Of a DNA stretch of 29,005 nt, positions 11,801 through 13,810 are shown one piece after another. Location: the NCBI GenBank assembly GCA_903870185.1, contig CAIQCE010000302.1, positions 1 through 29,005 on the forward strand, in the 5' to 3' direction. A program made the translations under genes and the position numbers. The stretch is from an uncultured Gammaproteobacteria bacterium (lineage in GTDB: Bacteria; Pseudomonadota; Gammaproteobacteria; Coxiellales; Coxiellaceae). The notes below the pieces were generated by a model that saw only the letters and a list, made by a program, of their open reading frames with translations, had not been told where the DNA came from and did no database searches. How positions within the stretch are numbered: position 1 is the first letter of the stretch; every line of letters starts with the position of its first letter.

Positions 11801-13810
11801 ATGATTCCAAAGACTCCTATCTTAAGAGTGGCGGTTCCTTCTCCACTCTATCAATGCTTCGATTATTGGCCGCCGGTTGATTCTAAAATCACGACTTGGG
11901 TGCCGGGACTTCGCATCAAAGTGCCTTTTGGTCGGCGTGAAGTCGTGGGGATTTTATTAGAGGTATTGGAAACTTCTGAAATCGATCCTAAAAAATTGAA
12001 ACCCGCTTTGGAAGTACTCGACGAAGAACCCTTGCTAGATTCTGTTTGGTTGAAACTCACACATTGGGCGAGTCAATATTATCAATACCCGATTGGGGAA
12101 GTGATGCTCGGGGTTTTGCCGAAAGCTTTGCGACAGGGGAAACCGTTTAAAGGGGACGTACGTAAGTTGTCAACTTGCTCTTCTAGTAAGTTGACAACTT
12201 ACGTACGTCCCCTCAGTCTCAACCCTGATCAACAAAAATGTATGGAACAAATCGCGGCATCTTCCGGCTTTCAATGTTTTGTATTAGAAGGCGTGACGGG
12301 CAGCGGTAAGACGGAAGTTTATCTGCAAGCCATCGATCGTTTATTAAAACAAGGCAAGCAAGCGTTGGTGTTGGTGCCAGAAATTGCATTGACCCCGCAA
12401 ACACTCGCACGTTTCCAAGCGCGATTTCCTGAGTTTTCAGTATTGGCCTATCACTCAGGGTTGACGGACAAAACACGAGCCGATGTTTGGAGACAAGTTC
12501 AAGAGGGTGTGACCCAAGTCGTGGTCGGCACTCGCTCGGCTGTTTTTCTCCCCTGGAAGAATCCAGGCATTATAATTTTGGATGAAGAACATGATGCTTC
12601 ATTTAAACAGCAAACTGGTTTTCGTTATTCGGCTCGAGATTTAGCGGTGTTTCGTGCGCAGCTGGAAAATATTCCTGTGCTCTTGGGTTCTGCGACGCCT
12701 TCCTTGGAAAGTCTTTATAATTTAAAACGCGAACGTTATCAGCATCTGCAGTTGCCCGAGCGCGCAGGTGAATCTCAAAAACCACAAATTCATTTGCTGA
12801 ATTTATGTCAGCAACCTTTGAAGGGTGGTTTGAGTCCAAAATTATTAGAGTCGATGGGGCGACACCTGGCAGCCGGTGGACAGGTGATGTTGTTTTTAAA
12901 TCGACGAGGTTATGCACCGGTATTGATGTGCCACGATTGCGCCTGGATGGCGACGTGCGATCGATGTGATGCTAAATTTAATCTGCATCAAAATCCTCCT
13001 CGGCTTCGCTGCCATCATTGTGAATCGGTAAAACCAGTGCCTCAAAAATGTGGTGCTTGCGGATCGCCTGAAATCTTTGCAGTGGGTCAAGGCACCGAGC
13101 AATTAGAAGAAACGGTTCAAGAACATTTCCCGCAATATAAAACTTTGCGTATCGATCGTGATTCCACTCGCGTCAAAGGAAGCTTGGAATCCATGTTGCA
13201 ATCGGTGCAGGATGAAGAGGCGAAAATTTTGATTGGGACTCAGCTTTTGGCTAAAGGCCATCATTTTCCCGCCTTGAGTATGGTAGCGATCGTAGATGCG
13301 GATGGGGGTTTATTCAGCAGCGATTTTAGGGCGTTGGAGCGAATGGGGCAGTTGATTGTGCAGGTTTCAGGTCGGGCCGGTCGGGCAGAGATATTGGGAG
13401 AGGTTTATATTCAAACGCATCATCCTGATAATCCTTTCCTGCAATTACTTTTAAATCAAGGTTATCCGGATTTCGCGAAAGCCTTGTTGGAGGAGCGAAT
13501 TGCCGCCGGATTGCCTCCTCACACCCATATGGCGGTGATTCGGGCTGAATCGACTCATAAAGAAAAGCCTCGGGTTTTTTTAGAAAAGCTGAGGTCTCAG
13601 ATTCATTCTAAGCATCTTCGAATCTTGGGTCCTATTCCCGCTCCGATGGAGCGCAAGGCAGGACGCGTTCGAGCTCAATTGATCTTGGAGGCTAGTAATC
13701 GATCTCAGTTGCAGGCTGAATTGCAAAGAGTAGTTCAGCGGCTGGTTCAAGATAAAACCAGTCGGGAAGTCCGTTGGTCCATCGATGTAGATCCAGTGGA
13801 AGCTTTTTAA
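11801..13810 (+). CDS. priA: Primosomal protein N' (replication restart helicase), about 669 aa
   Basis: N-terminal 3'-binding domain (VKVPFG-like IKVPFGRR), GVTGSGKTEVY, LVPEIALTPQ, GTRSAVF, DEEHD, Zn motifs CHDC/CDRC/CHHC/CGAC, GTQLLAKGHHF and WSIDVDP. The ORF track start is GTG 11783, and ATG 11801 is preferred by N-terminal alignment. Confidence 0.97.
   Translation: MIPKTPILRVAVPSPLYQCFDYWPPVDSKITTWVPGLRIKVPFGRREVVGILLEVLETSEIDPKKLKPALEVLDEEPLLDSVWLKLTHWASQYYQYPIGEVMLGVLPKALRQGKPFKGDVRKLSTCSSSKLTTYVRPLSLNPDQQKCMEQIAASSGFQCFVLEGVTGSGKTEVYLQAIDRLLKQGKQALVLVPEIALTPQTLARFQARFPEFSVLAYHSGLTDKTRADVWRQVQEGVTQVVVGTRSAVFLPWKNPGIIILDEEHDASFKQQTGFRYSARDLAVFRAQLENIPVLLGSATPSLESLYNLKRERYQHLQLPERAGESQKPQIHLLNLCQQPLKGGLSPKLLESMGRHLAAGGQVMLFLNRRGYAPVLMCHDCAWMATCDRCDAKFNLHQNPPRLRCHHCESVKPVPQKCGACGSPEIFAVGQGTEQLEETVQEHFPQYKTLRIDRDSTRVKGSLESMLQSVQDEEAKILIGTQLLAKGHHFPALSMVAIVDADGGLFSSDFRALERMGQLIVQVSGRAGRAEILGEVYIQTHHPDNPFLQLLLNQGYPDFAKALLEERIAAGLPPHTHMAVIRAESTHKEKPRVFLEKLRSQIHSKHLRILGPIPAPMERKAGRVRAQLILEASNRSQLQAELQRVVQRLVQDKTSREVRWSIDVDPVEAF
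12151..12213. repeat. 63-bp in-frame hairpin element inside priA
   Basis: Perfect 26-bp inverted repeat AGGGGACGTACGTAAGTTGTCAACTT (12151-12176 and 12188-12213) with an 11-nt centre. Confidence 0.93.

Follow-up and report, generated by a model that had tools for sequence, protein, structure and literature searches.

A REPIN-like palindromic repeat lies in frame in priA and encodes nearly all of the interdomain linker of a PriA without winged-helix domain

How can a long and perfect DNA palindrome lie inside the coding sequence of priA while the gene remains apparently intact, and is it related to the domain that this PriA lacks? The question is raised by a 29,005-nucleotide contig (CAIQCE010000302.1, assembly GCA_903870185.1; the whole stretch is hereafter called the window) from an uncultured gammaproteobacterium of the family Coxiellaceae. 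The window is contig C302 of a lake-water metagenome-assembled genome (MAG) of 1.98 Mb, 362 contigs and 40.6% GC. Our analyses show that the palindrome encodes nearly the whole linker between the 3′-DNA-binding domain (3′BD) and the helicase core of a PriA without winged-helix (WH) domain, and that its arms recur across the genome, where they also bracket a transposase gene. It would thus belong to the elements related to repetitive extragenic palindromes (REPs) and their hairpin-forming doublets (REPINs). Three features of the window are central to the argument:

11783..13810, forward strand: priA open reading frame, 675 amino acids from GTG, with 3′BD (residues 15-113), helicase lobes (DEAD/Helicase_C, 147-535), Cys-rich zinc ribbon (392-418) and C-terminal domain (CTD, 579-671), and no WH domain.
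12151..12213, forward strand: 63-bp palindromic repeat dimer (REPIN-like), in frame in priA, with left arm 12151-12179, loop 12180-12184 and right arm 12185-12213.
12140..12217, forward strand: PriA interdomain linker, residues 120-145, 26 amino acids between LRQG and LNPDQQ, delimited from alignments and AlphaFold.

A first, sequence-only reading had reported a perfect 26-bp inverted repeat, 63 bp in total, within priA, and this description holds. A repeat search in the window gives two arms of 29 nt each, 97% complementary, which form a perfect 26-bp stem with one G/T position and a 5-nt loop. The folded RNA of the region reaches -59.8 kcal/mol (z = -10.75) and none of 200 shuffled sequences was equally stable, so that the palindrome is far beyond chance. 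In PriA it codes for (K)GDVRKLSTCSSSKLTTYVRP(L), that is, for G124 to P143 plus parts of K123 and L144. These residues are numbered from the GTG; a start at the ATG at 11801, six codons after it and likelier according to the consensus N-terminus of 70 PriAs, would shift the numbers by 6. Only one of the six reading frames of the 63-mer is open, the other five containing stops, and the open one is the frame used in priA.

Outside this segment, the protein has everything expected of a PriA helicase: a 3′BD, two RecA-like lobes with SF2 motifs, a Cys-rich zinc region and a CTD, with all Pfam domains above their cut-offs. More than 100 columns are invariant in the 70 PriAs, and the protein keeps them, Walker A, DEEH and the eight Cys among them. 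That priA is a pseudogene is ruled out by the intact frame and by the conservation of all these motifs. The AlphaFold model, built from the 70-sequence alignment, has a mean predicted local distance difference test (pLDDT) of 90.4, a predicted template modeling score of 0.90 and a TM-score of 0.88 against structure 8FAK. In agreement with the disorder that had been anticipated for the linker, the repeat-encoded segment is predicted as the least confident internal stretch and mostly as coil, with pLDDT values of 69 and 60 for residues 121-130 and 131-140. The best match in the Protein Data Bank, both in sequence and in fold, is 6DCR, aligned full-length in a single piece (E 2.7e-198). HMMER alignments to structures that contain the WH domain were either split in two (4NL4, 6DGD) or limited to the helicase part (8FAK, 9ZBU).

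The absence of the WH domain is clear from the distance between the two conserved motifs at its borders. In 117 homologues, the LRxG-LNxxQ interval is bimodal, with 20-42 amino acids in 64 other short forms (median 22, all but one having at most 31) and 85-97 in 52 long ones; with 26 amino acids, the PriA of the window has no equivalent of the WH domain found at residues 109-181 in E. coli. An alignment of PriA from 30 genomes separates 15 short sequences, with tethers of 20-31 amino acids, from 15 that have additional residues where the WH domain of E. coli lies. Among the short ones are that of the window, those of both congeners, 11 from other genera of the family and one from a genome of another family (loci L002-L014 and L017). 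None of these 14 related short PriAs has a hairpin in its linker DNA (the best minimum free energy over 70 nt is -16 to -30 kcal/mol, versus -51.7 here). Since the short form is shared by relatives devoid of the hairpin, the loss of the WH domain is old, shared and independent of the repeat. The insertion of the palindrome is thus unconnected with the missing WH domain, this loss being common to both congeners and 12 further genomes without a linker palindrome. The PriA phylogeny forces at least two changes in WH state; it left 13 of its 27 inner branches open and recovered only a genus-level clade of short forms. The WH domain of E. coli PriA binds the parental duplex (PMC10175261), and the enzyme loses its preference for lagging-strand unwinding when this domain is deleted (PMC8323898). 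No natural PriA lacking it was described in the open-access literature that we searched, which is not proof that none has been described.

Within the linker, 20 whole codons and parts of two more belong to the element, the rest being only KPF and S. The claim that the repeat encodes nearly the whole linker of a PriA lacking the WH domain is therefore correct. Removal of the 63 bp would leave KPFNS, that is, 5 amino acids instead of the minimum of 20 observed elsewhere, so the element must have displaced the native linker and not lengthened it. The comparison of relatives suggested earlier shows that both congeners and the 12 other related short forms lack the element and have no similar peptide at this site. 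Taken together, these alignments indicate that the linker is constrained in length and free in sequence. What the data support is less the domestication of a palindrome as a linker than the replacement of a segment in which length matters and sequence does not. Consistent with such freedom, the interdomain/WH region of E. coli PriA tolerates even a break in the chain (PMC5778457). HMMER aligns the element-coded KLTTY (12194-12205, residues 138-141) with the helicase-docking motif W186-R187-T-N-Y190 of E. coli; this is probably a coincidence because only the Thr and the Tyr match and the short clade has no conserved Trp.

Another possibility is that the element has been selected for a function, either a role of the peptide or the regulation of PriA by the 29-bp mRNA/DNA stem, for example by cleavage with RNase III, pausing of ribosomes or a coupling to the activity of the transposase at replication forks. 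The stem is very stable (-59.8 kcal/mol) and in principle long enough for RNase III, an enzyme encoded in the genome; the arms are perfectly conserved, the element now forms the linker, and its Tyr is aligned by HMMER with Tyr190 of the E. coli docking motif. However, a recent insertion would equally leave perfect arms, the relatives have neither the hairpin nor a similar peptide at the site, neither this PriA nor any other of the short clade has the conserved Trp of the docking motif, and this is a single copy in a single lineage, with no evidence of selection. We thus consider selection for function unlikely, a regulatory role for the stem being conceivable but unsupported.

The arms of the priA palindrome belong to a family dispersed in the genome. 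A 19-nt arm sequence has 35 matches with up to 2 mismatches, versus none for a reversed control, and the arm matches form 36 clusters at about 30 loci, many of them at contig ends. Members are either 39-bp single hairpins or dimers of 61-85 bp with spacers specific to each copy. As contigs break inside the repeat, the copy number is underestimated and has to be taken as a minimum; contigs C17, C18, C93, C123, C139, C190 and C346 start or stop within it. The family hence adds to the fragmentation of the assembly. The distribution is overwhelmingly extragenic, as in REPs and REPINs. Among the 36 clusters, only the priA copy is flanked on both sides by long open frames (158 and 531 amino acids), which makes it the only clearly intragenic copy, about one in 30, and therefore exceptional within the family. 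The genome-wide count proposed at the outset has thus found the copies, some 30 loci, but the intragenic and in-frame fraction is limited to roughly one in 30. The flanks of the copies show no direct repeat, unlike the target-site duplication that a miniature inverted-repeat transposable element of a DDE insertion sequence would leave; they merely lengthen the palindrome, as AT...AT or TG...CA, and we found no convincing target-site consensus or duplication around the copies.

Several other palindromes surround this family. A minimal palindrome of 22 nt (AGGGGACGTACGTACGTCCCCT, C69:11543-11564) consists of the arms without the inner hairpin in an open frame (78 + 33 codons), and may be a second, decayed copy in a coding region or at a gene end. 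In the window itself, two perfect 26-nt palindromes (2865-2890 and 4423-4448) share the AGGGG...CCCCT ends and have different cores, TCGATGCATGCATCGA and TCGAGGCATGCCTCGA, probably as members of a subfamily of their own. Among relatives, congener G001 has 10 arm matches, which belong to a variant repeat; in congener G002 and in 38 further relatives, we found no repeat of this kind. In G001, the variant (…ACGTAACTTG) adjoins a remnant of the C-terminal part of a transposase (C18:18458-18697, 58% identity over residues 267-332), so that there the repeat family appears to have outlived its enzyme.

The intact form of this enzyme is encoded in the genome of the window. On contig C251, a 1133-bp unit (4839-5971) consists of one open reading frame of 334 amino acids (1462-2463 on locus L035) bracketed by the same arms in inverted orientation, 78 nt before and 57 nt after it. 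The arms in priA are identical to these terminal inverted repeats over 26 and 29 nt, with zero mismatches. The protein has the HUH and Tyr motifs and matches the Pfam family Y1_Tnp (IS200-like) with 44.5 bits for a cut-off of 23; the genome contains one intact copy and one fragment. The unit therefore shares with REPtrons a single-copy Y1 (HUH) transposase gene between inverted copies of the repeat. Homologues with 36-48% identity are spread over at least six phyla; they come from Gammaproteobacteria, Methylomirabilota, Nitrospirota, Omnitrophota and others, and have inverted repeats starting with (A)GGGGACAC... on both sides, at distances similar to those on C251. A comparable organization is known for the TIRYT genes, which resemble those of REP-associated tyrosine transposases (RAYTs) but are longer and are flanked by inverted repeats with the motif GGGGWSAS, which in some cases form dimers and families (PMC3733652); the repeats of the homologues, GGGGACAC, fit this motif and that of our genome, GGGGACGT, fits 6 of its 8 positions. 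Because the same arms flank the Y1 transposase on C251, the priA palindrome can be assigned to the REP/REPIN type, probably of the TIRYT kind, with a RAYT-like cognate transposase in the same genome. The same genome-wide arms and the transposase that they flank rule out that the palindrome originated in situ, whether by chance or through selection acting on the protein. The C-terminal tail of the transposase (residues 249-318) gives a weak match with the C-terminal end of the DnaA model. Four other Y1_Tnp matches (contigs C254, C278, C229 and C126) are RAYT-like and shorter, with open frames of 177-195 amino acids, and are consistent with the several distinct families of palindromic repeats in the window.

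A sister copy lies close to the priA palindrome, immediately upstream of the gene:

11742..11780, no strand assigned: 39-bp single-hairpin sister copy of the same repeat family, in the gap of 47-65 nt from the upstream stop to the priA start.

As first described, it matches the priA copy at 33 of 34 positions (11751-11784 versus 12184-12217). The preceding gene codes for 1047 amino acids and ends with a stop at 11733-11735. The sister hairpin occupies most of the gap after it, some 20 nt before the likely ATG of priA, and could affect read-through or the initiation of priA translation.

The proximity of this copy opens an alternative to transposition, namely that the priA copy arose locally, by template switching or gene conversion from the sister 430 bp upstream, primed by flank homology and overwriting the linker in one step. 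Such a replacement would explain why the linker length was kept. Both copies are followed by CCCCTCAGT, their left flanks match at 11 of 17 positions (CAGGGG...TT.AA), the highest of 32 flank comparisons, and PL(S) before LN is common in relatives, such that the CCCCTCAGT end may have found microhomology in the native DNA. However, the CA that follows CCCCT belongs to the element itself in about half of the copies, so that only GT is extra shared sequence, and the flank evidence is weak because an unrelated copy reaches a match of 10/17 by chance. The sister would also be a poor template, since it is a 39-bp monomer with 3 mismatches in the left arm, whereas the priA copy is a 63-bp dimer with perfect arms. 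This local origin therefore seems rather unlikely to us.

The timing of the insertion can be bracketed from the relatives. The insertion is absent from both congeners, and the PriA of the window is about 60% identical to theirs. Given this divergence, the perfect match of the arms to the C251 ends implies that the insertion is recent relative to the genus.

As the repeat often interrupts contigs, we also considered that the priA copy might be an artefact of assembly, a repeat-driven mis-join or collapse within priA in a MAG of 362 contigs. We checked the junctions in Logan contigs from four runs of one lake-water metagenome study, where the depth is low (2-6x). A contig of 168 nt from one run, of another sample of the study, corresponds to 12023-12190 with no differences; it starts in the upstream priA flank and crosses the left arm and the unique spacer to end 6 nt into the right arm. 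A contig of 1225 nt from another run covers 12186-12650, that is, the right arm and downstream priA, with 28 nt within the element, just short of the 31 letters demanded by the search. None of the Logan contigs showed a joint without the element, and no single one spans the whole of it. Low depth, the lack of a spanning public contig and the many contigs that break at the repeat would be compatible with an artefact, but separate contigs join each flank to the element, and a kept frame without stops together with a typical linker length would rarely result from a chance mis-join. An artefact is accordingly very improbable.

Together, these observations make it quite likely that a non-autonomous hairpin element, dependent on a transposase, inserted into a linker of priA that was unconstrained in sequence, with loss of the native codons, and that the outcome is a working PriA without WH domain held together by a repeat-encoded tether. 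The palindrome would be a non-autonomous REP/REPIN-like member made of two inverted terminal repeats and a short spacer, and its cognate enzyme the single-copy, long RAYT-like Y1 (HUH) tyrosine transposase on C251. One copy would have landed in the linker between the 3′BD and helicase lobe 1 after the split from the sequenced congeners. By analogy with the IS200/IS605 and RAYT paradigm (PMC3116915, PMC6006769), the Y1 enzyme may have inserted it as a single strand guided by its hairpin. The native codons of the linker would have been lost at or after insertion. The element survived because it entered in the only stop-free combination of orientation and frame among six, and because about 20-30 residues of any sequence can serve in this segment. 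The segment is presumably translated and the element neutral for the cell, the most likely product being a working PriA without WH domain and with a flexible repeat-encoded tether. The element would thus be a tolerated passenger, structurally necessary through replacement and not through adaptation. A stronger version, in which the segment is an exaptation, a required tether of the PriA lacking the WH domain whose 29-bp stem couples PriA expression or fork processing to transposition at forks, appears very unlikely to us.

Several observations weigh against the transposition of a REP-type element as we propose it. The C251 transposase scores below the cut-off of the NCBIfam RAYT model NF047646 (59.8 versus 80 bits), over residues 4-135 of 334 only, and the repeat head is AGGGGACG (AGGGGACGTAC) instead of GTAG or CGTC; this is therefore not a canonical RAYT/REP pair. 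The dimer spacers vary by copy and the 63-bp unit in priA reproduces no other assembled dimer, which falls short of demonstrating simple copy-and-paste of a doublet. We found no conspecific genome free of the insertion, and the closest PriAs are 54-60% identical; in a search of 5.8 billion proteins, the best one other than itself was 54% identical over residues 1-260. Finally, the sequencing support is at contig level and of low depth.

The in-frame insertion of a palindrome in priA is a known kind of event and implies no new mechanism. Palindromes in frame are already documented in Rickettsia and for GTAG/CGTC REPs. Among the cases closest to ours are the REP dimers described by Di Nocera, De Gregorio & Rocco (2013, BMC Genomics 14:522; PMC3733652), which encode 20-30 amino acids when they lie in genes. 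These intragenic REPs are often in genes for replication or global repair, some being the only REP-modified gene of their genome (PMC3733652). We did not find priA in that paper, nor priA or the primosome in the supplementary files searched. Both sets are in-frame palindromes of transposase-linked families; here, by contrast, the head is AGGGGACG and the whole interdomain linker is replaced without an added loop. An element standing in for an entire interdomain linker is less often documented than one that adds a loop. Our example adds a clean case of REP-type hairpins surviving in frame in replication and repair genes, and it illustrates a way in which selfish DNA can make itself indispensable to a structure while bringing no adaptation. 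The C251 unit may also be related to the TIRYT/TIRtron systems (PMC3733652), given its inverted flanking repeats and the length of its protein (334 amino acids versus 177-195 in the other Y1 frames of the genome). With the REPIN-RAYT system (Bertels & Rainey 2011, PMC3116915), it has in common a single-copy Y1 transposase, inverted repeats and tens of doublets that are nearly all extragenic. It differs from it by a transposase about twice as long, with a DnaA-like tail and a score under the NCBIfam RAYT cut-off, and by doublet spacers that vary.

The sequence-only reading had invoked the Rickettsia palindromic elements (RPEs), selfish palindromes that, in a bacterium of intracellular type, have entered the reading frames of conserved proteins (Ogata et al. 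2000, cited in PMC3733652), and the comparison is apt for an element inserted in frame in priA. The likeness, an in-frame insertion that is tolerated, is one of behavior. RPE-1 is longer (~100-150 bp) and RPEs are frequent inside genes; to our knowledge, RPE-1 has no known cognate transposase. Here, by contrast, about one copy in 30 is intragenic and a transposase is present. The hosts may also be comparable. Two adjacent paralogues of DotI/IcmL, of the Dot/Icm type IVB secretion system, are encoded in the genome of the window (G000, C87:12022-13269). The host is probably an intracellular, protist-associated bacterium of lake water, similar to Legionellales/Coxiellales, which would parallel the intracellular setting of the Rickettsia elements.

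At the protein level, the closest known system is 6DCR, an engineered E. coli PriA with the WH domain deleted, which has the same succession of 3′BD, short linker and helicase. The difference is that 6DCR is a laboratory construct, whereas the form without WH domain is natural here and occurs in half of the related genomes examined. In these Dot/Icm-type gammaproteobacteria, nature thus mirrors the E. coli deletion that loses lagging-strand specificity in vitro, and their PriA offers a system for studying how fork orientation is handled without the WH domain.

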